From an uncultured Chloroflexia bacterium (lineage in GTDB: Bacteria; Chloroflexota; Limnocylindria; Limnocylindrales; CSP1-4): 64,000 nucleotides of DNA. The position numbers were made by a program, and so were the translations under genes. The notes beneath the pieces were generated by a model that was given only the letters and a program-made list of their open reading frames with translations, made no database searches and was not told the DNA's origin. Below are positions 28,545 to 50,314 of the stretch, piece after piece (the stretch's first letter is position 1; every line of letters begins with the position of its first letter). Where the stretch lies: contig CAVTHS010000011.1 in NCBI GenBank assembly GCA_963734535.1, positions 4,789 to 68,788 of the forward strand. Direction: 5' to 3'.

Positions 28545-28847
28545 ATGGACAGTCTCGGAGTGCTGGCGGCGATCCTCGCCTGGCTCCTGATCCTCGGCGT
28601 GGCACTCCTGCGCATCCCCGGCGTGGGAATGCGCGCCCTCGCGGGGCCCTGGCTCGTCCTGACCGTCGTCTCGATGGGCGGTCTGTTCATGGTGTTCTTC
28701 GTGGTCTCGTACGGGCTCCTGTTCGCATTCGGGAGGGAAGCGGCCGCGGCGGGCGTGGCAGTGGCGGCCATGGTCCTCGCGGCAACGCCCGTCTTCTGGG
28801 CGCTCGTCCTCCGGCGCCGGGCACGTCGCACGGCCGCGCATGGCTGA
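28545..28847 (+). CDS. small membrane protein (3 TM)
   Basis: 100 aa with three hydrophobic helices. Its stop overlaps the start of the LuxR gene. Confidence 0.45.
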   Translation: MDSLGVLAAILAWLLILGVALLRIPGVGMRALAGPWLVLTVVSMGGLFMVFFVVSYGLLFAFGREAAAAGVAVAAMVLAATPVFWALVLRRRARRTAAHG

Positions 28848-29628
28848 TCGCATCTCGAGGAGCGCCGACGCCGTCCCGGCGGTCGCCCCCGTCCCGGCGG
28901 GCTTTGCCGGCGGTCACGTACCGACGCTCAACGTCGTCATCGCCATCACCGGATTCCCGCTGCTCGCGGCCGGGTACCGGGCCGTCATCGAGGAGGCCCC
29001 GGACCTGCGGGTCGCCGGCGCCGTGGAACGCCGCGACCGGGTGGCTGACGAGGTAGCCCGGCTCGCCCCCGACGTCGTGGTCATCGACGTGCCGACTTCG
29101 CCGCGCACAGACCGCCCGTCGGCTGGGACGATCTGGGCGATCCGGGTCGCTCGGCCTGCCGCGCGCATCCTTGCGATCGAGTCGCGGTGCGCCGGGGAAG
29201 ACCGCTCGCCGGCGACTGGGGCCGGTGCCCACGGCCTGCTGTCCCGTGAGGCCTCGCCCGGGGACGTGCTGGCGGCCCTCCGCTGTCTCGGCCGCGGCGA
29301 GACCTGGTCGAGCGCGTCGATCTCGACGGACGAGTCCCGCGCGGACGCTGCACCAGGGATGCCCGAGTTCGCCGCGGACCCCGTTCTGACCGTTCCCGGC
29401 CCCGCCGGCGACGGCGCGTTCGACAGCCTGAGCGAGCGAGCCCGCGAGGTCTTCCGCCTCGCAGCGATCGGCCATTCGAGCCTGGAGATCGCGCGGGAGC
29501 TCGGCGTCTCCGAGGATACGGTCCACGACCACCGGGGGCTGATCATGCAGCGGCTCGGCCTCCATCGACGCGTCGAGCTGTTGCGGTACGCGCTCCGCCA
29601 CGGCATCGTCCGGGCGACAGAGCTGTGA
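28840..29628 (+). CDS. LuxR/NarL-type transcription regulator with a degenerate receiver domain
   Basis: C-terminal HTH LSERAREVFRLAAIGHSSLEIARELGVSEDTVHDHRGLIMQRLGL. The receiver-like N-domain lacks the acidic DD pair (VVIAITGFPLL) but keeps DVVVIDVP. GTGA overlap with the next gene. Confidence 0.75.
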   Translation: MADRISRSADAVPAVAPVPAGFAGGHVPTLNVVIAITGFPLLAAGYRAVIEEAPDLRVAGAVERRDRVADEVARLAPDVVVIDVPTSPRTDRPSAGTIWAIRVARPAARILAIESRCAGEDRSPATGAGAHGLLSREASPGDVLAALRCLGRGETWSSASISTDESRADAAPGMPEFAADPVLTVPGPAGDGAFDSLSERAREVFRLAAIGHSSLEIARELGVSEDTVHDHRGLIMQRLGLHRRVELLRYALRHGIVRATEL

Positions 29629-30329
29629 GCCGCGTCCGCCGTGCCCTCGGCGGCGGTCGGACCGCCGCTCTCCGGTCCAGGCTTCGCCGCCTCCGGCCGT
29701 CGAGCCGGGCCGGCGTCGTAAGCGGGATGGTCGCCGGCGCAGCTCTCATCGCCGGACTGGCCGTCGTGCTCGTGGTGCTCGGTGCGGCGTTCTCGACCTT
29801 CTACGCGGAGTACGGGTTCCACCCGCAGGAGAATGCCCGCAGCTGGGCCGCCCTGACGCCGGCATACGCCGACTCGACGCTCTGCGAGCGGTGCCACGAG
29901 CCGGAGTACGCCCACTGGGTCGTATCCAGACACGAGGCCGTCGTCTGCGAGAGCTGCCACGGCCCGCTTCGCGCCCATGCCGCCGAAACCTCGCCGGATG
30001 CCCCGGCCGGCTCCGTCATCCTCGCCAGAGTTCCAGACGGGATCTGCGCGACGTGCCATGCGCAGGTGACCGGCCGGCCGCTCGCGTTCCCCCAGGTGGA
30101 GCTGGCCGCTCACTATGCGGGAGCCTCCTGCCTGTGGTGCCATGACCCTCACGACGCGAAGGCGCTGCGTCCACCCGACATCCCGCATTCGCTCGACCGG
30201 CTTCCAGCGTGCGTGACCTGCCACGTGCCCGGTGGCCTCAAGCCCGTCCCGGCCGGGCACGTCGAATCGAGCGACGCCGTCTGCCGGACGTGCCACTCGC
30301 GGCCCGCCGCGATCGTGGGCCGGCCATGA
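29625..30329 (+). CDS. membrane-anchored hexahaem c-type cytochrome
   Basis: One N-terminal TM helix and six CxxCH motifs (CERCH, CESCH, CATCH, CLWCH, CVTCH, CRTCH). ATGA overlap with the next gene. Confidence 0.85.
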   Translation: MSRVRRALGGGRTAALRSRLRRLRPSSRAGVVSGMVAGAALIAGLAVVLVVLGAAFSTFYAEYGFHPQENARSWAALTPAYADSTLCERCHEPEYAHWVVSRHEAVVCESCHGPLRAHAAETSPDAPAGSVILARVPDGICATCHAQVTGRPLAFPQVELAAHYAGASCLWCHDPHDAKALRPPDIPHSLDRLPACVTCHVPGGLKPVPAGHVESSDAVCRTCHSRPAAIVGRP

Positions 30330-31192
30330 GGAAGACGATGAATGCCGACTCGACCGACGCCGGGCGGGGATCGACGACGCTGTCGCGCCGGCGCGTCCTG
30401 CAGCTCGGCCTCGCCGCCGTGCCCGCCGTGTGCGGGGCGCAGCTCCTCGGGAGCGGGCTCGCGCAGACCACCGACGTGGCCCGCGCCGCGGTGCCGAACC
30501 CGGCCGGTGGGTCGTATGACCCGTCCGCCCATGACTGGGCCTTCGTGATGGACACGACCACCTGCATCGGGTGCGGTCGCTGCGTGGAAGCCTGCAAGCA
30601 GGAGAACCACGTCCCGCCCGAACCCGAGCTCAACCGGACGTGGGTGGAGCTGCATGTCCAGGCGGACGACTGGACCGTCTCCGTGAGCTCGCCCCAGGGC
30701 GGCGGGCACGGCGTGCCTTCCGAGGAGGCTGTCCCGGCCGCGGCCGGGGCGGTGCGGAATGCCTACTTCGTGCCCCGGCTGTGCATGCAGTGCGAGAACC
30801 CGCCGTGCACCTGGGTCTGCCCGGTCAGCGCCACCTACCGGACCGAGGATGGGATCATCCTGGTGGACGAGACGCGCTGCATCGGCTGCGGCTACTGCCT
30901 GATCGCCTGTCCGTACGGCGCCCGGTACATGGTCCCGGCGGGCGACACCACGCCGAAGGGCGTGCCCGGGATCGCGGACAAGTGCACCTTCTGCTACCAC
31001 CGCATCACCCGCGGGCTGCTGCCGGCCTGCGCCGAGGTCTGTCCCGTCAACGCCAGGATCTTCGGCGACCGCAACGACCCGGTGAGCCCGGTGAGCGTGG
31101 CCCTCGACCAGAAGCGCGTCCGGGCCATGAAGACCGCCCTCGGGACGCGGCCGCGCGTCTTCTACACGGGCCTCGAAGGCGAGGTGGACTGA
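30326..31192 (+). CDS. Tat-exported 4x[4Fe-4S] ferredoxin-type subunit (NrfC/PsrB/DmsB family)
   Basis: Twin-arginine signal SRRRVLQLG. Four Cys clusters: CIGCGRCVEAC, CMQCENPPCTWVCP, CIGCGYCLIACP and CTFCYHRI...CAEVCP. Confidence 0.9.
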   Translation: MRKTMNADSTDAGRGSTTLSRRRVLQLGLAAVPAVCGAQLLGSGLAQTTDVARAAVPNPAGGSYDPSAHDWAFVMDTTTCIGCGRCVEACKQENHVPPEPELNRTWVELHVQADDWTVSVSSPQGGGHGVPSEEAVPAAAGAVRNAYFVPRLCMQCENPPCTWVCPVSATYRTEDGIILVDETRCIGCGYCLIACPYGARYMVPAGDTTPKGVPGIADKCTFCYHRITRGLLPACAEVCPVNARIFGDRNDPVSPVSVALDQKRVRAMKTALGTRPRVFYTGLEGEVD

Positions 31193-32568
31193 TGTCGGTC
31201 CGCATGGCCGGCAGGGACCTGAGCGCCGACCCGCGGGTGCTCGCATCCGGGCTGCGCCGTGCGATCGGTGCCATGCCGCGGCCGCTGCGAGCGTGGTACG
31301 GCCTGCTCATCCTGCTCTGCCTGGTCGGGGCCGTCGGGGCCGCCCTGAGCATCCCGCCGGGCTGGGAGGTGCTGGGCACGAGTCCCTCCTTCGAGTGGGG
31401 GATCCTCATCGCAGCCTATGTCTTCTTCGCGATCACCACGAGCGGGCTCTGCCTCGCGTCGTCGCTGGGCACAGTGTTCGGGATCGAGATGTTCATCCCG
31501 CTCGAGAAGCGCCATGCGATCCTGGCCCTGCTCTGCCTCGTGACCGCCTTCGGGATCATCGCGCTCGATCTCCACTTCCCGGTCCGGATGGTCTTTGGGG
31601 CGGTCCTGAGCCCCTCGCTCCGATCGCCCATGTGGTGGATGGGCGTGTTCTACGGCGCCTACCTCGTGTTCCTCGTCATCGAGGTGGCGAGCATGTTCAC
31701 GGGGCGCTGGCGGATCCACCGGGTCGCCTGCGTCCTCTCCTCGATCACCGCGATCGTCGCGCCGACCACTCTCGGCGCGGTCTTCGGGGTCCTTGCGTCC
31801 CGCCCCTACTGGCACGGCGCGTTCACGCCCCCGGCGATGGTGTCGGCGGCGCTGCTCTCCGGCACGGCGCTCCTCGGGATCGTCTTCTACGGCGTTCACC
31901 GGTTCCGCCTCGCGGGCTACGAGCGGGCCGAGCGGCTCGCGATCCCCGCGATCCGGCTCCTGCTCACGATCACGCTCGCCGTGACGGTGCTCCTCGTCGG
32001 CTGGCAGATCGCGTGGGGGCTCTACGGGGACGTCCCGGGCCTGTCCGACGCGACCGCTGCGATCCTCGTCGGGCCCCTGGCGCTGCCGTTCTGGGTTCTC
32101 CGGATCCTGCTGGGCCTCGCGGTGCCGCTCATCCTCCTGGTGCTCCCCCGGACGCGGACGCCCGCGGGACTCGCCGCCGCCGCCGGCCTGGCCATGGTCG
32201 GGCTCTTCGCCGACCGGGGGATCTTCGTGTTCGCGGGCCAGGTCGTGCCGAGCACGGCGGTAGCGGGCGTGAAATCCTCCCCCTTCGCGCCGTACGTGCC
32301 GTCGCTCGTCGAAGTCAGCGTCGTCGTCGGGGCGCTCGCGGCGCTCGTGCTGGCCTATACGCTCGCCGAGCGCTGCCTGCCGATGGGCGAGCACTCAGGG
32401 CACGCCACCGGCGCGTTCCTCGGCTCCGCTGACGGTGCGGGAGTCGTTGACGCGAGGCCCGCCACGCCGGTCCCGTCCGCGCCGATCATCTCCGCGGCTC
32501 CGGTCGCCTCGCCGACGCCCGCCTTCGCCCCGGTCGCCCTGCATGACGGCACCGGAGCGGTGCTGTGA
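31192..32568 (+). CDS. NrfD/PsrC-family integral membrane quinone-interacting subunit
   Basis: About 10 TM helices with NrfD-like spacing. The ATG overlaps the upstream TGA (TGATG). It has a ~70-aa Ala/Pro-rich C-terminal tail. Confidence 0.85.
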   Translation: MSVRMAGRDLSADPRVLASGLRRAIGAMPRPLRAWYGLLILLCLVGAVGAALSIPPGWEVLGTSPSFEWGILIAAYVFFAITTSGLCLASSLGTVFGIEMFIPLEKRHAILALLCLVTAFGIIALDLHFPVRMVFGAVLSPSLRSPMWWMGVFYGAYLVFLVIEVASMFTGRWRIHRVACVLSSITAIVAPTTLGAVFGVLASRPYWHGAFTPPAMVSAALLSGTALLGIVFYGVHRFRLAGYERAERLAIPAIRLLLTITLAVTVLLVGWQIAWGLYGDVPGLSDATAAILVGPLALPFWVLRILLGLAVPLILLVLPRTRTPAGLAAAAGLAMVGLFADRGIFVFAGQVVPSTAVAGVKSSPFAPYVPSLVEVSVVVGALAALVLAYTLAERCLPMGEHSGHATGAFLGSADGAGVVDARPATPVPSAPIISAAPVASPTPAFAPVALHDGTGAVL

Positions 32569-33461
32569 GGGCGCTCCGAAGGCGCGGCGTCGTCCTCGCG
32601 GTCGTCGGCGTCGTCGCCGCGGTGGCCATCGGTGCGGCAGCGGGCGTCGGAATCGTCAACTCGAGGCTGATCGACTCCCTTGTCGCCGGCGTGCCTGTCG
32701 TGGCCCCCGCGCCGGGTACGGCATCGTCCGCGCCGGGTGCCACCTCCGGCCCCGGCTCGACGGGACGCCCCGGCTCGACGGACGTGCCGGCCCCCGCGGT
32801 ATCCCCGGGTTCGCCGACCACCCCCGGACCCTCCGCGGCCCGCCCGGGGGCATCGCCGGCCGCACCGGCGCTCGCCCTCACGCTGGAGATGCCGGCCGGG
32901 GCCGACTGCCTCGGCTGTCATACGATGGCTGCGGGCGGCGTGGGCACCGCCACGGTGCCGCCGATCGGCCATCCCCTCGCGGGCTGGACGAGCTGCACGT
33001 CGTGCCATGCCAACGACAGCCTGGTGAGGACTGCGCCCGGCCATTCGGGCATCCACGCCGATCAATGCCTCCTCTGCCACACCGCCACGACCCCGGCCGC
33101 GGTGGACCGCCCGCACTCCGCCCGCCAGGACGTGCCCTGCCTCAGCTGCCATGGGAAGACGGCGCCGCTGCCCGACAGCATGAAGAACCGATCGGAGACG
33201 ACCTGCTGGCTGTGCCACCCGGCGTCGGCCGCGCAGGCCCCGCGCTATCCCCATCCGACGCCCGCCGACGGCATCTGCCTCGGCTGCCACAGCGCCGCCA
33301 AGCTGGGTGCGCTCCCCGCCGACCACGTCGGGCGAACGAACAGCCAGTGCTCCGCCTGCCATGCCCCGGACTCGAAGCCGGCGCCCACCGCGCCCCACGA
33401 CCTGGCCTCGCGCGCCGGGATGTGCGCCTTCTGCCACCTCGCGGGGAAGCCGAGCGACTAG
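32565..33461 (+). CDS. membrane-anchored octahaem c-type cytochrome
   Basis: GTGA overlap with nrfD-like stop, an N-terminal TM helix and a Pro/Ser/Thr/Gly linker. Eight CxxCH motifs (CLGCH, CTSCH, CLLCH, CLSCH, CWLCH, CLGCH, CSACH, CAFCH). Confidence 0.85.
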   Translation: MRALRRRGVVLAVVGVVAAVAIGAAAGVGIVNSRLIDSLVAGVPVVAPAPGTASSAPGATSGPGSTGRPGSTDVPAPAVSPGSPTTPGPSAARPGASPAAPALALTLEMPAGADCLGCHTMAAGGVGTATVPPIGHPLAGWTSCTSCHANDSLVRTAPGHSGIHADQCLLCHTATTPAAVDRPHSARQDVPCLSCHGKTAPLPDSMKNRSETTCWLCHPASAAQAPRYPHPTPADGICLGCHSAAKLGALPADHVGRTNSQCSACHAPDSKPAPTAPHDLASRAGMCAFCHLAGKPSD

Positions 33462-33922: not shown

Positions 33923-34594
33923 TTACAGGTCGGCGACGTCGATGATCCCGCGTCGGATCGCGTACTTGAGCAGCTCCACCCGGTCGTGGAAGCCGAGCTT
34001 CTCCATGACATTCGCCCTGTAGTTGTGAATCGTCTGTTCCGCCAGGTGGAGCGTCAGGGCGATCTCCCGATTGGTGTGGCCGATCGCGGCGAGCAGCATG
34101 ACCTCGCGCTCCCGGTCATTCAGGCTCTCGTACGGGTCCGCGAGGATCCCTTGCGGCGCCTTGAGGACGTACGTGTTGACCATCCTCGTCACGATCGCAG
34201 GGCTGACGTATGTCTGGCCGCGCGCCACGGAGCGCAGGGCCGTGACGACGTCGGCTGGCTCCGCCTCGCGCGTGATGAAACCATCCGCGCCCGCCTTGAG
34301 GGCGAGCGAGAACTGCTCGGAGCTGCCCCGGCACTCGAGCGCGAGGATCTTCGTGGCCGGCCGGGCCGCGCGGATCGACTCGATCGACTCGAACGACGTG
34401 CATCCGGCGCGGTCGAACGGGAGGCACTCGGCGATGACGACGTCGGCGACCGTGCGCGCGATCTCGTCGCGAAGGGCCTCGCGGCCGCCGACCTCGCCGA
34501 TCACCTTCATGTCGGGCTCGGCGTCGACCACCTCGCGGAGCCCAACGTTGAGCATCGGGAACTCGAAGATGGCCAGGAGGACGCCCAGCTTCAT
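33923..34594 (-). CDS. LuxR/NarL-type regulator with a degenerate receiver (phospho-acceptor Asp replaced)
   Basis: HTH LNDREREVMLLAAIGHTNREIALTLHLAEQTIHNYRANVMEKLG. In the receiver, VLLAIFEFPML replaces LIVDDHP and DVVIAECLP replaces DxxLLDLxMP. It is a paralogue of the 28840 gene. An alternative ATG lies at 34630. Confidence 0.8.
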   Translation of the reverse strand: MKLGVLLAIFEFPMLNVGLREVVDAEPDMKVIGEVGGREALRDEIARTVADVVIAECLPFDRAGCTSFESIESIRAARPATKILALECRGSSEQFSLALKAGADGFITREAEPADVVTALRSVARGQTYVSPAIVTRMVNTYVLKAPQGILADPYESLNDREREVMLLAAIGHTNREIALTLHLAEQTIHNYRANVMEKLGFHDRVELLKYAIRRGIIDVADL

Positions 34595-34635: not shown

Positions 34636-35205
34636 TCAGCCCTTCGGGAGGTCGGTTGGCGTGCCGGGAACGCCGTTCCCGCCGAACGTCGCGTCGACCT
34701 CGGCCCGGATCTCGGCCAGGGAGCGGCCCTCCCCGATCCGCTGCTTGGCGAGGAGCGCGGTCTGGACGCATACGTCGCAGAAGGAGGCGTGCTGCTCGAA
34801 CGCGACCGCCCCGGCCGTCATCCGTGCTCGCAGGAAGCAGTCCAGGTTGCTGCGGTGCTGCATCGACGCGCAGCCGCAGTAGCAGGGCATCCAGCGGATC
34901 ACATCCGGCCGCTCGAGCGCGTAGCGATACGCTTCCTGGACCCGTGCGTCCGCCCCGCGCACGTAGTCGGGCCGCGCCGCCCAGGCGGTCTCGACGGCTG
35001 CCGCATCGGTGCCCGGATCTCGCGAGGCAGCGCCGGGCATCTCCGTCGCCGATGCGACCGAGGCGCCCATCGTCGGCATGACCGTCGCGTTCGCACCCCC
35101 GCCGCACGCGGCCACCAGGCCACCCGATAGGGCTAGGACGAGGACGGCCAGCGTACCGGTGATCGCCCGACGACGGTGCGACCGGGCTGTAGCGGGGACG
35201 CGCAT
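34636..35205 (-). CDS. PCYCGC-motif lipoprotein
   Basis: MRVPATARSHRRRAITGTLAVLVLALSGGLVAACGG is a lipoprotein signal, followed by RWMPCYCGCASMQHRSNLDCF and FCDVC Cys motifs. Confidence 0.7.
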   Translation of the reverse strand: MRVPATARSHRRRAITGTLAVLVLALSGGLVAACGGGANATVMPTMGASVASATEMPGAASRDPGTDAAAVETAWAARPDYVRGADARVQEAYRYALERPDVIRWMPCYCGCASMQHRSNLDCFLRARMTAGAVAFEQHASFCDVCVQTALLAKQRIGEGRSLAEIRAEVDATFGGNGVPGTPTDLPKG

Positions 35206-35228
35206 GGTGAGCTCCTTCCCTCGGATCG

Positions 35229-40882: not shown

Positions 40883-42180
40883 GGCCTGGCGCTCGATGAC
40901 GGCGCGGCGCTCGACGCAGGCGCGGTCGATGGCGCGGACGATCCCGCGCTCGCGGCGGGGGAGCCGGCCGGCGCCGCGCTCGCGAGGGCGTCGAGGTGCG
41001 CCTTCACGGTCGTGGCGATATCGCTGTCCGGGGCGAGCGCGACGACGCGCGACCACTCGCGCTGGACCCCGACCATGTCGGCCGGCTGGCGGTTCAGGTA
41101 GAGGAAGCCCAGGTCGTAGTGCGCCTCGACGTTCTTCTCGTCGAGCGTCAGGACCTGTTTCCACGCTGTCTCGGCCGTGGTGGCGTCACCCAGGTTGAAG
41201 GCCGTCGCGCCGAGGGCCAGGAAGCCGCGCACGTTGGTCGGCTCGATCGCCGTGACCTTCGAGTACCAGTCGCCAGCGGTCTTGTAGTCGCCGGTCCTGT
41301 AGTACTCGTCGCCGAGCGCCATCAGCGAGTCGGCGTCCTCCGCGTTCGCCTGGATCTTGACCATCAGCGCGGCCACGGCCGCCTGGTCGAGGACCGGCGC
41401 GCTCGCGGCGGCGCTCGGTGCCGGGCTTCCGCCCGCGCCGATGACGGACGCGCTCGTGCCGCCCGCGTTGAAGCCCATCACGACCACGATCCCGATGGCG
41501 GCCACGGTGGCGCCGACGATGGCCAGGTTCCGGAAGGCAGCCGACCCGATGATTCCCAGGAGCTTGCCCGGGCGGGAGGTGGTCCCGGTTCTGGCAGCGG
41601 TCGACGCGGCGCGCTCCGCGGCGGTCCCGACGATCTCCCGGTGCGCGGTCGGATCCACCTCGGCCAGGAGGGCGTCGATCTCGTCGTCGCTGACGATGCG
41701 TCGGCCGGTCTCGTCGACGAGCACCGCCGCGGTCGCTGCCGCCGCGGCTGCCGGGGTCGCGTTTGTTGCCGCCGCGGCCGAGGCCGCGAGCACGGCCGTG
41801 TCCTTAGCCGCGCCCGCCGCTCGCCCCGTCGCGGCAGAGGGTGCCGCGACGGGGGTCGGCGCGAGGGTTTCCCGGCGAGCCGGAGGTGTCGCCGGCTCGC
41901 CGGGCAGGACGGCCGGTCGCGCGCCCGCCCCGACAAGGGCGACGGCACGGGAGAGCGCGGCCGGGTCCGTGAGAAGTGCGTACGCCTCGTCGGCACCGGA
42001 GGCCTGGACGCGTGCCCAGGCCCGCAGGCTGCGCGGCGCCGCCGCGAGATACGCGGAGACCGTCTCGTGGGCGGTGCTCACGTCCTCGGGCGTGGCGGAC
42101 GGGTCGAGCCCGAGGCGTGACAGGAGCTCGCGCTCCAGCTTCTCCGGGCCCCTGGGAGTGGTGCTGCCCGGGCCGCTCAT
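40879..42180 (-). CDS. membrane-anchored TPR protein (CcmH/NrfG-like C-terminal domain)
   Basis: A central TM helix (LAIVGATVAAIGIVVVMGF) and C-terminal TPR repeats (DSLMALGDEYYRTGDYKTAGDWYSKV...). The stop overlaps the ccdA start (ATGA). The start is taken at ATG 42180. Confidence 0.65.
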   Translation of the reverse strand: MSGPGSTTPRGPEKLERELLSRLGLDPSATPEDVSTAHETVSAYLAAAPRSLRAWARVQASGADEAYALLTDPAALSRAVALVGAGARPAVLPGEPATPPARRETLAPTPVAAPSAATGRAAGAAKDTAVLAASAAAATNATPAAAAAATAAVLVDETGRRIVSDDEIDALLAEVDPTAHREIVGTAAERAASTAARTGTTSRPGKLLGIIGSAAFRNLAIVGATVAAIGIVVVMGFNAGGTSASVIGAGGSPAPSAAASAPVLDQAAVAALMVKIQANAEDADSLMALGDEYYRTGDYKTAGDWYSKVTAIEPTNVRGFLALGATAFNLGDATTAETAWKQVLTLDEKNVEAHYDLGFLYLNRQPADMVGVQREWSRVVALAPDSDIATTVKAHLDALASAAPAGSPAASAGSSAPSTAPASSAAPSSSARP

Positions 42181-42441: not shown

Positions 42442-45400
42442 TCAGTACGACTCGTCTTCGTGATTCTTGCCATGGCACGTCAGCGTGCACGTGCCCGTCT
42501 GCGTGCCGGCGCGAGTCCAGTCCACGGAGCCGATGTTCCCGGTCACGTTCGGCGCGAAGTTCACGAGACCAGCGTTGGTGCCGCTCTGCGATGGCGAAGG
42601 GCTCGTCCGGAAGTCACCCGCAAACGAGTTCGAGTGGATCCGGAAGTGGCATTCCGCGCAGATCGCGTCGCCGCGGCCCGCCTCGGGCGTGTCGATGGTC
42701 CCGTCGACAAGGCCCCGGTTTCGAATGCCGATCACGTGCAGCCCGTGGTACCGGAAGTTGGTGTCGGTCCTGGTCTTGCCGCTGGCGTCCGTGAACGGCG
42801 CTTCCGCATGGCACATGTAGCACAGGGCGAAATCGGCTGACCGATAGGGTTCCGTGAAGGGCTTCAGGTCGCGATCGCGGTAGTTCTGCATGAGATCGCC
42901 GCGGTACTGGTTGGCGTGAGGCGCCAGGTCAGAGCCGGGCGCCGGCGGCGACGTGGTGTTGAACTTGCGGGAGTCTCCATGGCAGTTGGCGCAGCGGATC
43001 GTGCTGCCGGTCGTGAACGACCAGAGCTTGTAGGGCGATGTTCCGGCGAGACTGTTGGCCATCGCGGCGGTCGCATTCTTGCCCGGCGCCTCGATCGGGT
43101 GGAAGGATCCGTTGGCAGGATTGAGCTCGATACCCTTGTCCTCGGCCCACCACGAGGGGTGCTGTGGATCCTTCGCCGGCAGCACGGTCGAGCCGGAATG
43201 GCACTTCAGGCAGAGCTGATACTCGAGCGTCGTCTTGCCGGTCGACCCATCGAGGAAGGCATAGCCGGGCGCGCTGTTCGCGGCGCCATTCGTGACCGAC
43301 ACGCCGGTGACGCCCGTGAGCTCGCCAGGGGCCGTCCAGCCCTGGGTGGTCTGGATGCTTGGCGCGCCCGAGGCGGCGTGGGGATCGTGGCAATCCGCAC
43401 ACTCGTTATGGCGGTTGCTGACACCCCCGAACTCGACGTCGGTGGCAAGCGTGTGGCCGCTGCCGCCGGCCAGGGCGTCGTGGCGGTAGTAGGAGCCCGT
43501 CGCCGGGGAATTCTGCGGGACGAGCGGGTCCGTGTACTGGGACTGGACCTTGCTCGTGGCCCCCGAACCCAGGGTGTCGTGACACCGGAAGCACAGGGAG
43601 GATTGAGGCAGGCTGCTCACCACGAGAGACGCGGTGCCCTGCGCCGTGTGCGTGCTATGGCAGAACGCGCACTGATCCGCCGCCATGCCATAGGGTCCAT
43701 GGATGTCGAGCGCCATCCCCCCCGGTGCCGCCGGGGCGACGAGGACATACCTGGTGCTCCCGACGGCACTGGCCGTGGCGGCCGCTGCCGGGAGCCCGAA
43801 TAGGGAGCCCGGCTGGACCAGGCGGTACCTGAGGTCGGGGCTGGTATCCGGCGCCAGGCCTATCGGGAGACCCCCCGCCGGGCCGACCGGCTGGAGGCCC
43901 GGCGCGGTCGACTGGGTCGAGCCCGGCTGGGCCAGGCGGTACGCGAGCGCTGGATCAAGGTTCGGCGCCGGCCCGACGGAGACCCCGGGGTTCTGGACGG
44001 GCGATTCGAGGAGGGGCGGCTCAGCCCCCATGTGCAAGGTGGCAGCGACCGCACCGATGAGAGCCGTGCCCGCGTCGGTGATCCGGAATTCGTACGATTC
44101 CAGGTACTGGGCGTCAGTCGTCGGCCGGATCGTGAACTCGACCTCCGTGTAGGACATGGCTGGAAGGGTCAGCGGGCCGGCCGGGTTCGGGCCCATGGAA
44201 TGGCGGCCGACCGTGCGGACCTGAGACGCGTCGCTGGTGTCGCGGCTTCGAATCGTGCCGACGCTGATCGTGTCGGCGTCCGGTCCGAGTCTTGACCCAC
44301 CGCCCGGCACGCCGCTGCTTACCCACTCGGGACCCACGTAGAAGCCCATCCCAATCACGCTCTCGCCGCTCGGCACAGCGACGAAGGCTGTGCCGCACTT
44401 CGGGCGATACTCGAGCCGAGGCGAGATCGTCACGGGGCGATCGCCCTCGTTCCGCACCTGGAACCGAATCCGAACCATGCTGAAGCGCCGGACGTTCGCG
44501 AGGGGTTCGTCCTCGGGCATGTAGGTCGGCGTGAGGCTGAGGTCCGCTACTTCGCCGACGGTCGAATGCTCGATCTCCACGAGCGGTGCGACGAAGATGG
44601 TGGCCGAGGGGCCGATCGCGAGGGCGCCCGCCACCTCCAGGCTGGAGGCGAAGGTCGCCGCGAAGTCGAGGCCGCCGTCGACCGGCGACGAGGTCGGAGC
44701 CCGGAGCACCACCGACCGGTCCACGGAGATGTCCGCGCCGACGGGATCGAGATCCCAAACGATCCTTTCGAGATTGCCGTCGTACGTCCCACCGCCGGCA
44801 TCGACGATCGACCAACCCGCCGGGATGACGACGTTCAGGCTGCTGGCCGGCTGATCCTCGGCGGTCGTGAATCCGACGGTAACCCGGAGCTGTGTGCCGG
44901 GATCGATCCGGTGGCGGCCCTCGGCCGGCGCATCGGTGGTCAGGTGGAGCCGGACCGTGGCCGCCGGGTTCGGGGCGGGTGCGACGAAGATGGTGGCCGA
45001 GGGGCCGATCGCGAGGGCGCCCGCCACCTCCAGGCTGGAGGCGAAGGTCGCCGCGAAGTCGAGGCCGCCGTCGACCGGCGACGAGGTCGGAGCCCGGAGC
45101 ACCACCGACCGGTCCACGGAGATGTCCGCGCCGACGGGATCGAGATCCCAAACGATCCTTTCGAGATTGCCGTCGTACGTCCCACCGCCGGCATCGACGA
45201 TCGACCAACCCGCCGGGATGACGACGTTCAGGCTGCTGGCCGGCTGATCCTCGGCGGTCGTGAATCCGACGGTAACCCGGAGCTGTGTGCCGGGATCGAT
45301 CCGGTGGCGGCCCTCGGCCGGCGCATCGGTGGTCAGGTGGAGCCGGACCGTGGCCGCCGGGTTCGGGGCGGGCGAGGGGCTCGCGATCGGATCAGGCGAG

Positions 45401-45729
45401 GGGCTCGCGATCGGATCAGGCGAGGGGCTCGCGATCGGATCAGGCGAGGGGCTCGCGATCGGATCGGGCGAGGGGCTCGCGATCGGATCAGGCGAGGGGC
45501 TCGCGATCGGATCAGGCGAGGGGCTCGCGATCGGATCAGGCGAGGGGCTCGCGATCGGATCAGGCGAGGGGCTCGCGATCGGATCGGGCGAGGCGGAGGC
45601 ATCCGGCGTGAGCGCAAGCACCGACGCGGCGTTGTTCGGAACGTACGCGAGCAGGAGCGTCCCAAGGAGCATCGCTGCCGCGGAGAGTGTCCTGGCGCGA
45701 TGACCCACCGAGCGGTGCGTCTGCCTCAT
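42442..45729 (-). CDS. large modular secreted multihaem cytochrome (~1095 aa): signal peptide, SPSPDPIA linker, two DUF11-like repeat domains, C-terminal cytochrome domain
   Basis: ATG 45729 (MRQTHRSVGHRARTLSAAAMLLGTLLLAYVP...). Nine PDPIASPS repeats and a 131-aa domain present twice. The C-terminal ~470 aa carry 7 CxxCH (CAFCH, CFRCH, CADCH, CLKCH, CANCH, CYMCH, CAECH) plus CTLTCH. Confidence 0.85.
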   Translation of the reverse strand: MRQTHRSVGHRARTLSAAAMLLGTLLLAYVPNNAASVLALTPDASASPDPIASPSPDPIASPSPDPIASPSPDPIASPSPDPIASPSPDPIASPSPDPIASPSPDPIASPSPDPIASPSPAPNPAATVRLHLTTDAPAEGRHRIDPGTQLRVTVGFTTAEDQPASSLNVVIPAGWSIVDAGGGTYDGNLERIVWDLDPVGADISVDRSVVLRAPTSSPVDGGLDFAATFASSLEVAGALAIGPSATIFVAPAPNPAATVRLHLTTDAPAEGRHRIDPGTQLRVTVGFTTAEDQPASSLNVVIPAGWSIVDAGGGTYDGNLERIVWDLDPVGADISVDRSVVLRAPTSSPVDGGLDFAATFASSLEVAGALAIGPSATIFVAPLVEIEHSTVGEVADLSLTPTYMPEDEPLANVRRFSMVRIRFQVRNEGDRPVTISPRLEYRPKCGTAFVAVPSGESVIGMGFYVGPEWVSSGVPGGGSRLGPDADTISVGTIRSRDTSDASQVRTVGRHSMGPNPAGPLTLPAMSYTEVEFTIRPTTDAQYLESYEFRITDAGTALIGAVAATLHMGAEPPLLESPVQNPGVSVGPAPNLDPALAYRLAQPGSTQSTAPGLQPVGPAGGLPIGLAPDTSPDLRYRLVQPGSLFGLPAAAATASAVGSTRYVLVAPAAPGGMALDIHGPYGMAADQCAFCHSTHTAQGTASLVVSSLPQSSLCFRCHDTLGSGATSKVQSQYTDPLVPQNSPATGSYYRHDALAGGSGHTLATDVEFGGVSNRHNECADCHDPHAASGAPSIQTTQGWTAPGELTGVTGVSVTNGAANSAPGYAFLDGSTGKTTLEYQLCLKCHSGSTVLPAKDPQHPSWWAEDKGIELNPANGSFHPIEAPGKNATAAMANSLAGTSPYKLWSFTTGSTIRCANCHGDSRKFNTTSPPAPGSDLAPHANQYRGDLMQNYRDRDLKPFTEPYRSADFALCYMCHAEAPFTDASGKTRTDTNFRYHGLHVIGIRNRGLVDGTIDTPEAGRGDAICAECHFRIHSNSFAGDFRTSPSPSQSGTNAGLVNFAPNVTGNIGSVDWTRAGTQTGTCTLTCHGKNHEDESY
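44587..45372. repeat. 2 x 393-bp tandem duplication; I saw no mismatch
   Basis: 44587-44979 and 44980-45372 align at a constant 393-nt offset. In-frame, they encode a duplicated 131-aa domain (APNPAATVRLHLTTDAPAEG...PSATIFVAP). Confidence 0.9.
45371..45586. repeat. 9 x 24-bp tandem repeat (GGCGAGGGGCTCGCGATCGGATCA; units 4 and 9 end in G)
   Basis: Read directly from the sequence. On the minus strand it encodes (PDPIASPS)x9, the linker of the large cytochrome. Confidence 0.95.
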
Positions 45730-45952: not shown

Positions 45953-47320
45953 TTACGGGAAGTTGACCGGCGCAGTCCCCTGCGGTAGCGGGGTTGTGCC
46001 CGTGTTGGCGCTGCCCTTCGTCGGGTCGTGACACAGCTCGCAGATCCCGCGGTTGTCAACCTTGAGGAGGCGGCTGTCGCCGACGGCCGTCGAGCCATCG
46101 GGATACGGAACGTTGGCCGAGTACTGGGTCGTGCTCGAGCCGGTGTTCATGACGGCGTTCGAGCCATGCGCGACGTGGCAGGTCGTGCAGGTTCGGTTCT
46201 TGGCGGTCGTGTGGCGATACATGTAGATCGCATCGCCTGAAGCCACGCTCCGCGAGCCCGAGGGCGCCAGGTAGCGGGTGTGGCATTGCGAGCACCAGTT
46301 CGTCATCTGGACGTTGAACCCAAGTGGGTCCGCGCTGTTCCAGGCGGCGCTGCCGCTGGCGGACGTGTTCGGCCTCGCGTTAGGAGCGTCGTAGGAGGTT
46401 GTGCCGGTGGCGTTGTACGGGACGTTCTTGTGCAGATAGTCGCCGGACGCGGCCGCGTAGTCCCCGGCGATCCCGTTGAAGGTTCCCGCGGTCCGAGCTG
46501 CGAGCACCTGGTCTGCGTAGAGCAGGTACGTCGATTCGGTTCCGGGGGTGCCGTTCACCTGGATCACGGTGTAGTTGCGGGTCTTGGCCGGGTCGAACGT
46601 GGCATCAGTCACGTTCACGGCGGCCGCCGCCAGGGTCGTCCCCGTCGTGGCGTCACCGTTGGCGTCCGGGATCCCCTGTAGGATCCGGTAGTTTCCATTC
46701 CCATGCGGATTGTGGCAGGCCGTGCACTCCATCTCGGAGGCGAGATCGCCGCCGGCGCCGGTGCTTCCATCGCCATTCCCGAGGGCACCGCTGCCCCAGA
46801 CGATGTTCTTCGAGGTGAGCCCGTTCCCACCGGTCCCGGCGATCGCGATGTGGGCTGAGGTCACCTTGGCTCCCGCGGCCGAAGTGTTCGCCACGGGGAC
46901 CTTTGCGTTCGAGACGCCGCCGGTGTTGCTGACGAGTCGATAGGCGGCACCCGAGCCGATGTAGGCCGTGATGAAGCCGCCGCCGCGGAGGGCTCCGACG
47001 ACGGTGCTCTTGTCGCGGGCGACCCCGCTCAGGTTGTACTGGACACCGCTGTCGACGTCGGTTGCCGCGCCGGTCCCGGAAGCCCCATGGCAGGAGCGGC
47101 AGTATTCCGTGACGGTCGCCTCGCTCGAGACGAGGAGGTAGCCCGTCGGGCTCTTCGACGTGTGGAGGCGATGGCACGCGGCGCAGCCATCGGCCGTGAT
47201 CCCGCCGGTGGATCCGTTGTTGAACTTCATGACGTGCGGCCCACCGTCGGCGGCGGCAGGCAATGCGGCGAGGATCAGCCAGACGGCGCCGCCCACGAAC
47301 AAGAGCGCCAGTCGTCTCAC
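45953..47320 (-). CDS. secreted hexahaem c-type cytochrome, OmcS-like by motif pattern
   Basis: AAAGGAGGTGA SD 5 nt before GTG 47320. The signal peptide is RRLALLFVGGAVWLILAALPAAADGG. Six CxxCH motifs (CAACH, CRSCH, CTACH, CSQCH, CTTCH, CELCH), with Gly/Ser/Thr/Asn-rich sequence in between. Confidence 0.85.
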   Translation of the reverse strand: MRRLALLFVGGAVWLILAALPAAADGGPHVMKFNNGSTGGITADGCAACHRLHTSKSPTGYLLVSSEATVTEYCRSCHGASGTGAATDVDSGVQYNLSGVARDKSTVVGALRGGGFITAYIGSGAAYRLVSNTGGVSNAKVPVANTSAAGAKVTSAHIAIAGTGGNGLTSKNIVWGSGALGNGDGSTGAGGDLASEMECTACHNPHGNGNYRILQGIPDANGDATTGTTLAAAAVNVTDATFDPAKTRNYTVIQVNGTPGTESTYLLYADQVLAARTAGTFNGIAGDYAAASGDYLHKNVPYNATGTTSYDAPNARPNTSASGSAAWNSADPLGFNVQMTNWCSQCHTRYLAPSGSRSVASGDAIYMYRHTTAKNRTCTTCHVAHGSNAVMNTGSSTTQYSANVPYPDGSTAVGDSRLLKVDNRGICELCHDPTKGSANTGTTPLPQGTAPVNFP

Positions 47321-47439
47321 TGTCTCACCTCCTTTCGCTAGTGCTACGGAACTCCAGTAGTCGCCCGCCCTGCGGGTGTCGGCGTGGGCCGATGGCCAAC
47401 CTTCCTTTCCTTCAATGACTGGATTCACAGCCCATCAGC

Positions 47440-47455
47440 GCAGGTCCGGACCTGC
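47440..47455. promoter_or_regulatory. 16-bp perfect palindrome GCAGGTCCGGACCTGC directly after the NHL gene stop (stem-loop)
   Basis: It abuts the stop codon (47456-47458) on the minus strand. It opens the 135-bp, comparatively AT-richer spacer preceding the hexahaem gene. Confidence 0.35.
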
Positions 47456-48574
47456 TCAGTAGGTCCAAACCTGGATCCGGTTGTTGCGCCAATCGGCCAC
47501 GTAGACACGTGAGCGGCCGTCCACGGCGACGGCGTTGGGCAGCTTGAAGCCGCCATCCCCCGAGCCCCCCTCGCCGAACGCGCCGATGTTCTGGGGGCGG
47601 GCGTCGCCTGCCGCGAGCACGTGGTAGACCTGCACGCCCTGGAGAGAGAGGTCGGCGACGAAGACGCGGCCCGAATCGTCGATCGCCGTTCCGCGTGGCA
47701 GCCCGAGGTTCCCGGCTCCCGCGCCGCGCCCGATGACGCCAAGCTGGCTGCCATCTCGGCCGAACACGACGAGCCGTCCGTTGTTGCTGTCCGCCACGTA
47801 GACGTTGCCGCTCGCGTCGACAGCCACGCTATTCGGGAAGCTGAACTCGTTCGCGCTCCCGAAGGTCTGGATGAACCTGCCGTCGGGCGCGAACTCATGG
47901 ACAGCCTGGAACGGTGCCCCGACGCTCGTGACGAAGAGGTCCCCCTTCGTGTCGAACGCCAGGCCGAGCGGTGCCCAACCCGTGAGGTCGGGCCCGGGGT
48001 CGAAGGCTCGCAGGTAGGTTCCGTCGGCCGAGTAGATGTAGATGGTCGCTGCGGGCCGGTCGCTCACATAGACATCGCCGTTCGTCGGGTTGACCGCAAC
48101 GTAGACGGGAACGTGGGTGCCGCCCGCAGTTGTCGGTGCCCTGAGCGAGCCGACCACGCTGCCGGATCCGTCGAACACGACGACCTGTGGGTCGCCTTCG
48201 GTCTGCGTGGCGTAGATCCGGCTTCCGTCGGCGTTCACGGCCACGCCTGTCGGGGCGACCACGTCGTAGATGCTGTACGAGTAGTGCGGCACCGCCTCGA
48301 TGGTGATCCCTGGCAATGGGAGCTCGGCGATCGGCTTCCGGTTGAGGAGGTACCAGCCTCCGATCGTCAGTAGAGCGACAGTTGCGGCCAGAAGAAGGAA
48401 GAGGAGCACGATCCGTCGGCGCCGGGCGCGCTCGGGCGACGCCTCGCCCCCGGGAGCGACGTCGCCGTGGGGCGCGCCGTCGTCTTCGGGAGCATCTGCG
48501 TCGGCGGGGATCGAGGGTCCCAGCACGGAGCCGTCGATCGATGTCATTCCCTGTGCCGTGACTTCACTGGTCAT
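47456..48574 (-). CDS. membrane-anchored NHL-repeat beta-propeller protein
   Basis: TM helix IVLLFLLLAATVALLTIGGWYLL, then six repeats of the type P.GVAV...G.vYVaD..n.ri.vf. ATG 48574 lies 1 nt after the upstream stop. Confidence 0.85.
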   Translation of the reverse strand: MTSEVTAQGMTSIDGSVLGPSIPADADAPEDDGAPHGDVAPGGEASPERARRRRIVLLFLLLAATVALLTIGGWYLLNRKPIAELPLPGITIEAVPHYSYSIYDVVAPTGVAVNADGSRIYATQTEGDPQVVVFDGSGSVVGSLRAPTTAGGTHVPVYVAVNPTNGDVYVSDRPAATIYIYSADGTYLRAFDPGPDLTGWAPLGLAFDTKGDLFVTSVGAPFQAVHEFAPDGRFIQTFGSANEFSFPNSVAVDASGNVYVADSNNGRLVVFGRDGSQLGVIGRGAGAGNLGLPRGTAIDDSGRVFVADLSLQGVQVYHVLAAGDARPQNIGAFGEGGSGDGGFKLPNAVAVDGRSRVYVADWRNNRIQVWTY

Positions 48575-48575
48575 G

Positions 48576-49550
48576 TCAGCCACCGCTCGTCGTGCCGGAG
48601 GAGGGCGACGCGGCCGGGCTGCCGGATGGCACGCCACCCACCCGGGCCAGGCCCGTGTTCGCGGCGAAGTTCTGCGGATCCTGTGTCAGCACTCGGCTGT
48701 AGGCGTCGACCGCGGCGGCCGCGTCGTTCTGGACCTCGGCGACGAGCCCGAGGCCGATGAGCGCGTCGACCGCGTAGGTTCCCGACGTCAGGGGTCCGAG
48801 CTTCGCCCGGGCGTCGTCGGGACGCTTCTCGCACAGGGCAACCATCCCGCCCGCGTACTGGGCACCGGCGAGGTCACCCAGCGACGTGTAGGCCGTCTCC
48901 ATCTGCGCGTACGGTTCGCACCAGTCGACCGGAACGAGCGCGGTCGCCTGGCGGAGCGCGGCCACGGCACGCTTCGGTTCACCTGCCTGCATGAGCGCCG
49001 TGCCGAGGAGATTGAGGGCGTCCGCGTCGGTCCTCTTGATCAAGATCGCCTTGGAGAGCGAGATGACCGCATCCTTGGGCTGGCCCTTCTTCACCTGGAT
49101 GACGCCCAGGCTGAAGTAGGCGGACTCGAGTTGGGGGTCCACGTTCGCCATCTCCCCGCCCACCGCCGCATCGATGACCTTCGTGAAGTCCGCCGCGGCG
49201 GCATCGAGCTTGCTGAGGGCGATCTCGGCGCTGCCCCGGCCGAGGAGGGCCGCGTTGGAATCGGGTGCGGCCTTCAGGATCTCGTCGTACTGGGAAACGG
49301 AGTCAGCGAACCGACCTTTCTTCATGTACGCGGCCGCGAGGGTGAGCCGGGCATTCAGGAGGTTCGGGTTTCCGGTCAGCGCCTCCTCCGCGACCTGGAT
49401 GTCACGGTCGACGATTCCCGGACCCGGGGTGCGGTACTGGTCCAGGACGTAGAGGACTCCGACCAGCGGGATCCCGATCACCAGGATCATCGTCAGGCTG
49501 ACGATCAAACGGTTGAGTGACCTGTTGGGCAGGGACGTGACCCGGAGCAT
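48576..49550 (-). CDS. membrane-anchored TPR-repeat protein
   Basis: ATG 49550, TM helix LIVSLTMILVIGIPLVGVLYVL, then TPR-like helical repeats (ARLTLAAAYMKKGRFADSVSQYDEILKAAPD...). Confidence 0.75.
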   Translation of the reverse strand: MLRVTSLPNRSLNRLIVSLTMILVIGIPLVGVLYVLDQYRTPGPGIVDRDIQVAEEALTGNPNLLNARLTLAAAYMKKGRFADSVSQYDEILKAAPDSNAALLGRGSAEIALSKLDAAAADFTKVIDAAVGGEMANVDPQLESAYFSLGVIQVKKGQPKDAVISLSKAILIKRTDADALNLLGTALMQAGEPKRAVAALRQATALVPVDWCEPYAQMETAYTSLGDLAGAQYAGGMVALCEKRPDDARAKLGPLTSGTYAVDALIGLGLVAEVQNDAAAAVDAYSRVLTQDPQNFAANTGLARVGGVPSGSPAASPSSGTTSGG

Positions 49551-49774
49551 GTTGTGCACCTGCTGCTGCAACCTGAACGCGAGGCGTTGCGGCCGAGGGC
49601 GCACCCGCAGGCACACCCCACCGGGTTCAATGGTGGTTGGCGGGCGTGCGGGTTCCAATCCGCCGGGGGGTAGAACATCGATACAGCCGGGCGGTCGTGT
49701 CGGCCCGGGGGGCATGTATCGCCCGGACGATGTATCCGCCGCCGCGCCGCGCCGGGCCGCCGCCAGCGCCCGCG

Positions 49775-50314
49775 TCAGGCGGCGGGGCGGGGCGTCGAGA
49801 AGTCCGCGGGGACCTCGAGCTCGATCGGGCCGTCCGTCTCCCGGACGCCGAACCGGTCGAGCGGTCGCGGGGGCGGGCCCGAGATCACCGAGCCGTCGAT
49901 GCGAAAGAAGCCCTTGTGGCAGAGGCAGGCGAACGAGGCCTGGTCGGTCCAGTCGTAGGCGCACCGCGCATGCGTGCAGCGGGGGTCGAACGCGACGAGA
50001 TCGCCGGCGCTCCGGCGAACGAGCCATGCCGATCCTGCGACAGTGGCGCCGCCGACGGTCCCGGCGAAGCGGACGGGGACTGGCTGATCAGGGATCAGCC
50101 CGGACGGGTCGACGTCCGCGCGCACCCATCCGCCGGGCGCGGAGACGGCCGCCGATCCGCACGCATCGAGCAGGACGATGCCGGCGACGGTCGACCCGAT
50201 GACGGCGAGTGCCCGGCGCCGGCTGATCGGGGCGGCCAGCGGAAGACCGCGGGGGACCGTCTCGGGCGGGGCCGCGTCAAGCCCGGCGGCGTCGCGCGGA
50301 GCCCTGTCGTCCAT
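49775..50314 (-). CDS. Tat-exported Rieske [2Fe-2S] protein
   Basis: Twin-arginine signal SRRRALAVIG. Rieske boxes CTHARC and CLCHKG are separated by 12 residues, followed by GSVISGPPPRPL. Confidence 0.85.
   Translation of the reverse strand: MDDRAPRDAAGLDAAPPETVPRGLPLAAPISRRRALAVIGSTVAGIVLLDACGSAAVSAPGGWVRADVDPSGLIPDQPVPVRFAGTVGGATVAGSAWLVRRSAGDLVAFDPRCTHARCAYDWTDQASFACLCHKGFFRIDGSVISGPPPRPLDRFGVRETDGPIELEVPADFSTPRPAA

Follow-up and report, generated by a model that had tools for sequence, protein, structure and literature searches.

A conserved multihaem cytochrome cluster in Limnocylindria and its possible role in electron exchange with the cell exterior

Several gene clusters for extracellular electron transfer (EET) have been described that can serve as a frame for reading new multihaem loci. 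In the Gram-positive model developed for Thermincola, a decahaem cytochrome, ImdcA, resides in the membrane, and a hexahaem cytochrome, CwcA, modelled on OmcS, is proposed to act as a wire that spans the wall (PMC7911101). The EET clusters of Dethiobacter alkaliphilus, a monoderm Fe(III) reducer, combine secreted multihaem cytochromes and a CymA/NapC-like quinol oxidase with NHL proteins, TPR proteins and regulators (PMC10376724). Clusters for OmcE nanowires always include beta-propeller lipoproteins, and in Desulfuromonadia they adjoin resB/ccsB (bioRxiv 10.1101/2025.10.22.684050). One of the OmcS haems, haem 5, has a histidine of the neighbouring subunit as a ligand (PMC7911101, PMC12954529). 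Here we compare these systems with a cluster of five multihaem c-type cytochrome genes and their partners, found in a 64-kb stretch of DNA (the window; contig CAVTHS010000011.1, positions 4,789 to 68,788) from an uncultured bacterium of the Limnocylindria, phylum Chloroflexota. The cluster comprises two modules on opposite strands, module A at 28545-33461 (+) and module B at 33923-53907 (-), all positions being those of the window.

We read these two juxtaposed respiratory modules as a multihaem conduit that links the quinone pool of the membrane with the outside of the cell, as proposed for Thermincola and Dethiobacter, and put the probability of this reading at about 0.55. The five cytochromes carry, from left to right, 6, 8, 10, 7 (plus one CxxxCH) and 6 CxxCH motifs, 37 in frame, exactly the count given in the first-pass annotation of this DNA. 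Translation of the whole window in six frames yields 39 CxxCH, compared with about 3 in shuffled windows; the density of haem motifs is far above chance. Two predicted extracytoplasmic quinol-interacting modules are present: NrfD and NrfC with two anchored cytochromes of 6 and 8 haems, and a decahaem cytochrome resembling ImdcA and NrfH. Between them, the gene content fits the chain from quinol to the surface that the first-pass annotation had proposed. That chain would have been called into question by a catalytic subunit nearby; searches of the cluster and its flanks with Pfam and NCBIfam found no molybdopterin, NrfA, HAO, MccA or multicopper-oxidase-type catalytic subunit in or beside it.

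The conduit could work as follows. Menaquinol would be oxidised at NrfD/NrfC, at the decahaem cytochrome, or at both, and electrons would pass via the anchored cytochromes to a secreted, OmcS-like hexahaem cytochrome, perhaps stacking or polymerising through the wall, and from there to a large surface cytochrome. Export, positioning or assembly would be aided by the NHL and TPR proteins, and a set of kinase and regulators would turn the cluster on. Both the wall-spanning role of the large cytochrome and the polymerisation of the hexahaem, which the first-pass annotation had taken as far as an extracellular polymer, are what we infer from sequence only.

Comparison with described systems

As in Thermincola potens and T. 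ferriacetica, where the proposed components are ImdcA, PdcA, CwcA and OcwA, the window encodes a decahaem homologous to ImdcA and no porin. BLASTP aligns the decahaem with T. ferriacetica ImdcA, whose sequence we took from the supplement of PMC7911101, at 29% identity over 128 residues (E-value 9e-13), with a further C-terminal piece at 9e-5. The window hexahaem is analogous to CwcA, a likeness drawn from the description of that protein. Unlike Thermincola, the window lacks an OcwA-like (NrfA-fold) terminal nonahaem: none of the cluster proteins has a Cytochrom_C552/NrfA-type match in Pfam or NCBIfam, and a large linker-bearing cytochrome with 7+1 motifs stands instead. Relative to the Thermincola set, the window adds an NrfCD module, a Rieske protein and System II genes that are embedded in the cluster. 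In gene content the cluster is also like those of Dethiobacter alkaliphilus, with secreted multihaem cytochromes, a NapC-like cytochrome, NHL and TPR proteins and flanking regulators. It differs in belonging to another phylum and in having neither flavoproteins nor an ABC transporter within the cluster.

The comparison with Geobacter sulfurreducens rests on OmcS (PDB 6EF8) and its genomic setting. Besides OmcS paralogues, the OmcS locus of Geobacter holds a propeller of the YncE type, a TPR-glycosyltransferase and a two-component system, and the window cluster shares with it a beta-propeller, a TPR protein and a two-component system. Unlike Geobacter, the host of the window is probably without an outer membrane, and neither a porin nor, as far as the window extends, a PpcA-type periplasmic carrier was seen. 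Every open reading frame (ORF) between 28545 and 53907 has been assigned and none is barrel-like, nor is there an unassigned ORF in the region large enough for a beta-barrel. A porin-cytochrome conduit of the MtrCAB/Pcc type was considered and rejected on these grounds, in agreement with the first-pass annotation.

Given the parallels in Thermincola, Dethiobacter, OmcE and OmcS, the window cluster belongs to a known kind of system. The first-pass annotation was aware of no described system with this combination in a high-GC lineage, and here it has to be corrected: OmcS-like hexahaems, NapC/CymA-like cytochromes, NHL and TPR proteins have precedents in Thermincola and Dethiobacter (PMC7911101, PMC10376724). 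What sets it apart is the new phylum, the lack of an OcwA-type reductase, the distinct large cytochrome, the embedding of System II genes, the Rieske protein and, in this sub-lineage, the attachment of an NrfCD module. We found no published description of the cluster in Limnocylindria/Ellin6529 in connection with multihaem cytochromes or EET, although coverage of the literature was incomplete and this is an absence of evidence only.

The secreted hexahaem cytochrome and OmcS

The gene for the secreted hexahaem cytochrome (45953..47320, -; 6 CxxCH) starts at GTG 47320, not at 47428, and encodes 455 residues, including a 24-residue signal peptide that is followed by an almost invariant A|DGGPH. 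The protein has more than 1,700 metagenomic homologues, of which those with names are assigned to 'Candidatus Limnocylindrales' or Chloroflexota. Like OmcS, which has about 430 mature residues, it is a secreted protein with six CxxCH in roughly 400-430 mature residues. When a profile of the family was compared with all PDB sequences, OmcS came first (E-value 1.2e-4, in colinear pieces), followed by MtrA at 6e-4.

The histidines provide a second line of evidence. Twelve are invariant in an alignment of 43 sequences of the hexahaem family, namely those of the six CxxCH motifs together with H29, H53, H157, H206, H370 and H385, and these are enough for six bis-His haems. An alignment of the OmcS family likewise shows exactly 12, arranged alike with respect to the motifs; the six outside the motifs are H2, H16, H110, H147, H257 and H335, and the shared arrangement includes CxxCHxxH at motifs 1, 3 and 5. 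The second histidine of OmcS motif 1 is His16, which we take to be the ligand to haem 5 of the neighbouring subunit in 6EF8; its counterpart in the window hexahaem is H53, which might act between subunits in the same manner. Local signatures common to the two families are CH[DN]PHG..YR at motif 3, WC..CHT at motif 4 and C..CHxAH at motif 5. In a joint MAFFT alignment of 148 sequences, invariance extends to five of the six haem-binding motifs and, among the six histidines outside the motifs, which are presumed to be distal ligands, to three; hexahaem and OmcS-family sequences are 18-25% identical.

Profile-profile alignment needs more care. With signal peptides removed, hhalign gives the hexahaem and OmcS families a probability of 98.8% in local mode and 99.5% in global mode, the latter over 314 columns with the six motifs in register. 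Alignments to segment-permuted OmcS still reach 90-99.4%, so that the raw probabilities are inflated by the repeated CxxCH units, and we replaced them by the rank of the native segment order and a 6x6 matrix of segments. The native order is the best of the 41 tested (115.9 versus a mean near 68), and for each of the hexahaem segments 2-5 the best match is the OmcS segment at the corresponding position, clearly so for segments 3 and 4; by a binomial estimate, at least four diagonal best matches out of six would arise by chance with a probability of about 0.009. Other results count against the parallel with OmcS. Segments 1 and 6 are not best matched with their OmcS counterparts. A single-sequence phmmer search of the hexahaem against the PDB gave no cytochrome match, the hidden Markov model of the OmcS family found nothing among the ORFs of the window at E-values up to 10, and the OmcS profile aligned out of register with the single window hexahaem sequence. 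AlphaFold2 models made without haems were poor, with a predicted local distance difference test (pLDDT) score of 51.6 from the 43-sequence alignment and 50.7 from the 148-sequence joint alignment, and Foldseek returned 0 matches in the PDB for the first of these poor models (pLDDT about 51). The NHL protein of the window and the propeller of the Geobacter OmcS locus have no sequence similarity.

Taking these results together, the hexahaem is probably a remote member of the OmcS family. The relation lies beyond the reach of single-sequence search. The OmcS likeness assumed in the first-pass annotation has the profile match, the 12 histidines and four of the six segments in its favour, though as a remote relation.

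Conservation and extent of the cluster

To follow the cluster across genomes we used the hexahaem in a scan of one genome per species, which recovered 77 loci, nearly all of them in metagenome-assembled genomes (MAGs) of Chloroflexota/Limnocylindria. One of these loci is 96% identical to the window. For synteny, every protein of the window was searched by tblastn against the 47 loci that measure 20 kb or more, each of them from a Chloroflexota/Limnocylindria MAG. Listed from its right end, module B of the window consists of a histidine kinase, a response regulator, a pseudo-receiver, the Rieske protein, a TPR protein (TPR2), the NHL protein, the 6-haem cytochrome, the large cytochrome, a second TPR protein (TPR1), CcdA, ResB, CcsB, ResA, the 10-haem cytochrome, a PCYCGC protein and a LuxR regulator. 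The order from histidine kinase to decahaem, sometimes continuing to PCYCGC, is kept across the 47 loci, with one to three copies of the hexahaem gene. NHL is present in all 47, TPR2 in 46, the response regulator in 44, ResA in 43, ResB in 42, and the Rieske protein and histidine kinase in 38 each. The decahaem was recovered in 36, a figure limited by the 10-kb flank.

At the level of species, the order of module B is kept in about 45 Limnocylindria/Chloroflexota genomes, and module A is adjacent only in close relatives. This conserved synteny indicates that module B is a vertically inherited core locus and not an acquired island. We therefore depart from the first-pass annotation, which had described a self-contained island between 28840 and 50314. 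A mobile or horizontally acquired island was rejected in view of the flat GC, the lack of tRNA or integrase borders, the ordinary metabolic and repair genes in the flanks and the synteny in about 45 species. GC content lies between 0.67 and 0.75 throughout the window without any compositional break, and because G+C is so uniformly high, genes were chosen by third-position GC together with homology. The block also runs further than had been thought, to the left as far as 28545, where it takes in an ORF of 100 residues, and to the right as far as 53907, where it takes in the pseudo-receiver, response regulator and kinase genes. Gene junctions are tight, as had been reported: in most cases neighbouring genes overlap by 1-8 nt or stand 13-29 nt apart.

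The flanking genes are unrelated to the cluster. Those on the left encode a GH10 protein, an ATP-dependent DNA ligase, a luciferase-like oxidoreductase and a betaine ABC transporter; those on the right encode a DUF6812 protein, rhodanese-domain proteins and an ABC transporter. The GH10 glycoside hydrolase gene (26746-28338, +) has the DNA ligase gene on one side and the NrfCD module on the other and is absent from that place in L083 and L084, two of the related loci. A long plus-strand ORF (51946-54708) overlies the histidine kinase gene, which runs on the other strand (52093-53907, -); since the ORF has a family match (DUF6812) only 3' of 53907, the real plus-strand gene probably begins beyond the end of the kinase gene. 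No tRNA gene is found at the borders of the cluster. The only one in the window, 7 kb away, was identified by ARAGORN as a tRNA-Ile with anticodon TAT (60947-61022, +), an uncommon bacterial route to reading AUA. Among the MAGs that carry the hexahaem cluster is one labelled 'Mn-Chloroflexi-1, isolate MnB_4' (L044, VEOW01000005.1), a name that hints at a possible tie to habitats of manganese cycling.

Components of the cluster and alternative readings

Pfam agrees with the first-pass identification of the remaining components (NrfC and NrfD, the NapC/NirT module, Rieske, System II, TPR, NHL, PCYCGC and LuxR proteins). Module A opens with the small ORF of 100 residues (28545..28847, +), which has three helices predicted from hydropathy to lie in the membrane and no family match; it overlaps the LuxR1 gene by 8 nt and stands upstream of LuxR in four of four relatives (L081-L084). 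LuxR1 (28840..29628, +) combines a GerE/LuxR helix-turn-helix (Pfam GerE, 1.6e-15) with an atypical, pseudo-receiver N-terminus that has no Response_reg match. Next come a membrane-anchored hexahaem cytochrome c (29625..30329, +; 6 CxxCH, with Pfam and hydropathy in support), whose orthologue precedes NrfC in L081-L084, and an NrfC/PsrB/DsrO-like four-cluster Fe-S protein with a twin-arginine (Tat) signal, RRR (30326..31192, +; Pfam Fer4_11, 76 bits). The latter matches PsrB in the PDB (2vpw_B) at 4e-45. The NrfD/PsrC-type integral membrane, quinol-interacting subunit (31192..32568, +; Pfam NrfD, 85 bits) has 10 hydrophobic stretches above the hydropathy threshold and 615 homologues. The last gene encodes a membrane-anchored octahaem cytochrome c with a Pro/Ser/Ala-rich linker (32565..33461, +; 8 CxxCH, Pfam, hydropathy).

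With NrfD and a Tat-exported four-cluster Fe-S subunit both present, this is a module of the NrfCD-type complex iron-sulfur molybdoenzyme (CISM) kind. It resembles NrfBCD, DsrJOP, Qrc, Hmc/Tmc, Geobacter Cbc and the core of alternative complex III (ACIII), which likewise combine such Fe-S and NrfD subunits with multihaem cytochromes on the outer face. Unlike these complexes, the window module has two single-pass anchored cytochromes (6 and 8 haems) in place of NrfB, DsrJ, QrcA or ActA and lacks a molybdopterin-like subunit. No catalytic partner was found in the cluster, in its flanks or in the same module of the four relatives. Membership of a named NrfCD complex was rejected: the best NCBIfam match of NrfC is DsrO, at 183 bits and under the cut-off of 200, and because all NCBIfam scores fall below the family cut-offs, the module is not the equivalog of any named complex.

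The NrfCD unit is a second, independent module. Its order in relatives is small ORF, LuxR, 6-haem cytochrome, NrfC, NrfD, second cytochrome, LuxR. In close relatives, whose NrfD is 85-86% identical, it borders on the main block at the decahaem end, just as it does in the window; one more distant relative carries it at 965-987 kb of a contig whose main block occupies 65-86 kb, about 900 kb apart. The two entry modules named in the first-pass annotation are both present, in separate units. In more distant relatives, the left-most gene of module B, which encodes LuxR2 (33923..34594, -; Pfam GerE), immediately follows the NrfCD module in the same orientation. From this placement, LuxR2 was historically part of the NrfCD module, and the present juxtaposition of modules A and B is specific to a sub-lineage. 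LuxR2 is a paralogue of LuxR1 (42% identical), and both lack the canonical acidic pocket of a receiver, so that the earlier view of the two as atypical paralogues holds. Exactly where the NrfCD module meets LuxR2, the close relative L084 has a DDE_3 transposase (12357-13424 of that locus), and the window has a 462-bp non-coding gap (33461-33923). This suggests that the modules were joined by rearrangement, and the junction, with its transposase in L084, is the only trace of rearrangement that we found.

The PCYCGC-motif lipoprotein (34636..35205, -; Pfam PF13798, 81 bits; lipobox LVAAC) is without an assigned function; its gene comes next after the decahaem gene in L054, L066, L067, L069, L083 and L084. 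The ImdcA-like decahaem cytochrome (35229..36932, -; 10 CxxCH) is membrane-anchored and has a quinol-dehydrogenase module of the NapC/NirT/NrfH type at its N-terminus, where a membrane helix precedes a Pfam Cytochrom_NNT domain (residues 49-136; 43.1 bits, cut-off 24.1). It matches NrfH in the PDB (2j7a_C) at 8.5e-7. Because its NCBIfam scores for the NrfH and NapC models are under their cut-offs, it is not an equivalog of either.

The large secreted cytochrome (42442..45729, -) was delimited by motif count, Pfam and repeat analysis. A signal peptide is followed by a linker of SPSPDPIA repeats, a duplicated beta-rich domain of 131 residues, a further non-haem region and a C-terminal haem domain. 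The linker, rich in Pro and Ser and roughly 80 residues long, is encoded by a 24-bp unit repeated 9.3 times (45371-45593). The two 131-residue domains come from an exact (100%) tandem duplication of 393 bp (44585-45372), which is either very recent or an assembly artefact; in the close relative L083 the orthologue is 130 residues shorter, a length that fits a single copy. The linker and repeated domain described in the first-pass annotation are thus present, and the Ig-like fold it gave to the repeats has only a sub-threshold bMG10 match behind it.

The motif content of this protein raises the possibility that it is a catalytic octahaem enzyme with the CxxxCH site as its active haem, and that the cluster feeds it electrons to act on a soluble substrate, for example sulfite, tetrathionate, nitrite or hydroxylamine. 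The catalytic haems of octahaem enzymes often have unusual binding motifs (NrfA, MccA), and the pattern of seven CxxCH and one CxxxCH is kept in most orthologues. Counter to this, the protein has no similarity to NrfA, ONR, Otr, MccA or HAO in Pfam, NCBIfam or the PDB, and single-sequence phmmer matches to the PDB involve only the low-complexity linker and no cytochrome. Its first two-haem unit is instead paralogous to that of the OmcS-like hexahaem (BLASTP, 37% over 87 residues, E-value 5e-7), and its N-terminal half is rich in linker and varies in length and linker content among orthologues. We regard a catalytic role as very improbable.

Genes for cytochrome c maturation lie between the large cytochrome and the decahaem. 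They encode a membrane-anchored, ResA/TlpA-like thiol-disulfide oxidoreductase with WCPDC (36946..37545, -; Pfam AhpC-TSA/Redoxin, redoxin 81 bits), the System II haem handling and ligation subunit CcsB (37575..38459, -; Cytochrom_C_asm, 157 bits), its ResB/CcsA partner (38473..39990, -; ResB, 258 bits) and CcdA, a DsbD-type reductant transporter (40004..40882, -; DsbD_TM, 59 bits). All four of the four System II components are present and intact, and in 40-43 of the 47 related loci the ccs genes stand in the same place. The first-pass annotation called the set dedicated, which goes too far. It may be the general maturation system of the lineage; the data fit a single general copy equally well as a dedicated one. 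TPR1 (40879..42180, -; Pfam, hydropathy), which crosses the membrane once and carries an extracytoplasmic TPR domain at its C-terminus, has weak CcmH/CycH-TPR similarity and lies directly upstream of CcdA in 37 of the 47 loci, and is a candidate apocytochrome or assembly chaperone.

On the other side of the hexahaem gene are the NHL-repeat beta-propeller with its N-terminal membrane anchor (47456..48574, -; Pfam NHL, 87 bits; hydropathy), which adjoins the hexahaem in all of the 47 loci, and the N-terminally anchored TPR2 (48576..49550, -; Pfam). NHL, TPR1 and TPR2 have one membrane helix each, with the repeat domain predicted to lie outside. The Tat-exported Rieske [2Fe-2S] protein (49775..50314, -; Pfam Rieske; SRRR Tat signal) has boxes of the bc/b6f type (CTHxxC...CLCH), and its best NCBIfam match is PetC, sub-threshold. 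No cytochrome b gene was found by tblastn in the 64-kb window; 14 of 79 related loci carry one no more than 10 kb from the hexahaem gene. L001 and L002 have a cytochrome b gene and further multihaem cytochrome genes nearby, with cytochrome b directly after the Rieske gene in L001. The Rieske protein may link the chain to a bc-type complex encoded elsewhere.

These genes bring the main rival into view, an ordinary respiratory and cytochrome-biogenesis locus in which a general System II operon is accompanied by extracytoplasmic carriers and no electrons leave the cell. Menaquinol would then be oxidised via a Rieske/bc-type or NrfCD-type complex, and electrons would go to terminal oxidases or to soluble acceptors at the membrane surface. 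Practically all related genomes sampled have the block, and ccdA-resB-ccsB-resA always lies within it; the composition of the block is flat and it bears no mark of mobile elements; the Rieske boxes and the cytochrome b genes near the hexahaem in 14 of 79 loci, in L001 between Rieske and more multihaem genes, point the same way. The Limnocylindria are generally regarded as aerobic heterotrophs, and the near-universality of the cluster among them counts against a conduit to the exterior, as does the fact that it holds a bc-type Rieske and possibly the only cytochrome c maturation genes of the lineage, which fits an ordinary respiratory locus too. This rival stays alive because the cluster is near-universal, the Rieske is bc-type and the ccs genes are maybe the sole copy. 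Against it stand the OmcS layout of the secreted hexahaem, the long Pro/Ser linker and variable non-haem domains of the large cytochrome, as in surface proteins, NHL and TPR partners typical of monoderm EET clusters (PMC10376724), the lack of an oxidase or reductase gene in or beside the cluster, and a total of 37 haems that far exceeds the needs of a soluble carrier role. We consider an ordinary locus unlikely. If it were true, the locus would be the core cytochrome-maturation and respiratory operon of the lineage, and routine.

At the right end of the block, a stand-alone pseudo-receiver protein (50841..51212, -; the ORF start possibly as far as 51398) is present in 44 of the 47 loci. The C-terminal 123 residues of the ORF 50841-51398 are the part that resembles the receiver of the response regulator; the pseudo-receiver and the first half of that neighbouring receiver share 36% identity, Glu replaces the phospho-acceptor Asp in the pseudo-receiver, and the ORF has no Pfam match. 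The NarL/LuxR-type response regulator (51432..52166, -) has Response_reg (97 bits) and GerE domains, and the GAF-HisKA_3-HATPase sensor histidine kinase (52093..53907, -; Pfam) is found in the same position in L002.

The direction of electron flow is not readable from sequence, and flow could equally be inward. Multihaem conduits of the Mto/Mtr type are reversible, and the cluster might accordingly serve uptake from extracellular Fe(II), Mn(II), reduced humics or a partner cell, toward the quinone pool or a Rieske-linked oxidase. A bc-type and presumably high-potential Rieske protein heads the operon, the hosts are widespread in soils and freshwater, and a related MAG is labelled 'Mn-Chloroflexi-1', though the provenance of that label is untraced. 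Nothing in the sequence sets the direction, however, and Pfam and NCBIfam reveal no Cyc2, MtoA or multicopper-oxidase-type oxidase among the cluster proteins. Use of the cluster for uptake seems to us rather improbable.

Under the preferred reading of a conduit to the exterior, we should consider the possibility, tentative and doubtful as it is, that Limnocylindria build OmcS-type wires through a monoderm envelope, with NHL and TPR proteins as assembly factors and the large cytochrome as anchor or tip. If true, this would be a porin-free nanowire system distinct from that of Geobacter, and a monoderm model of wire export and assembly in which NHL, TPR and large cytochrome proteins are concrete candidate factors. 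An entire class of uncultured Chloroflexota, common in soil and freshwater, would then share OmcS-type EET as a conserved trait, and there would be unrecognised extracellular electron exchange in ordinary soils. EET would not be limited to specialised anaerobic metal reducers, which would bear on the redox cycling of iron, manganese and humic substances in soil.

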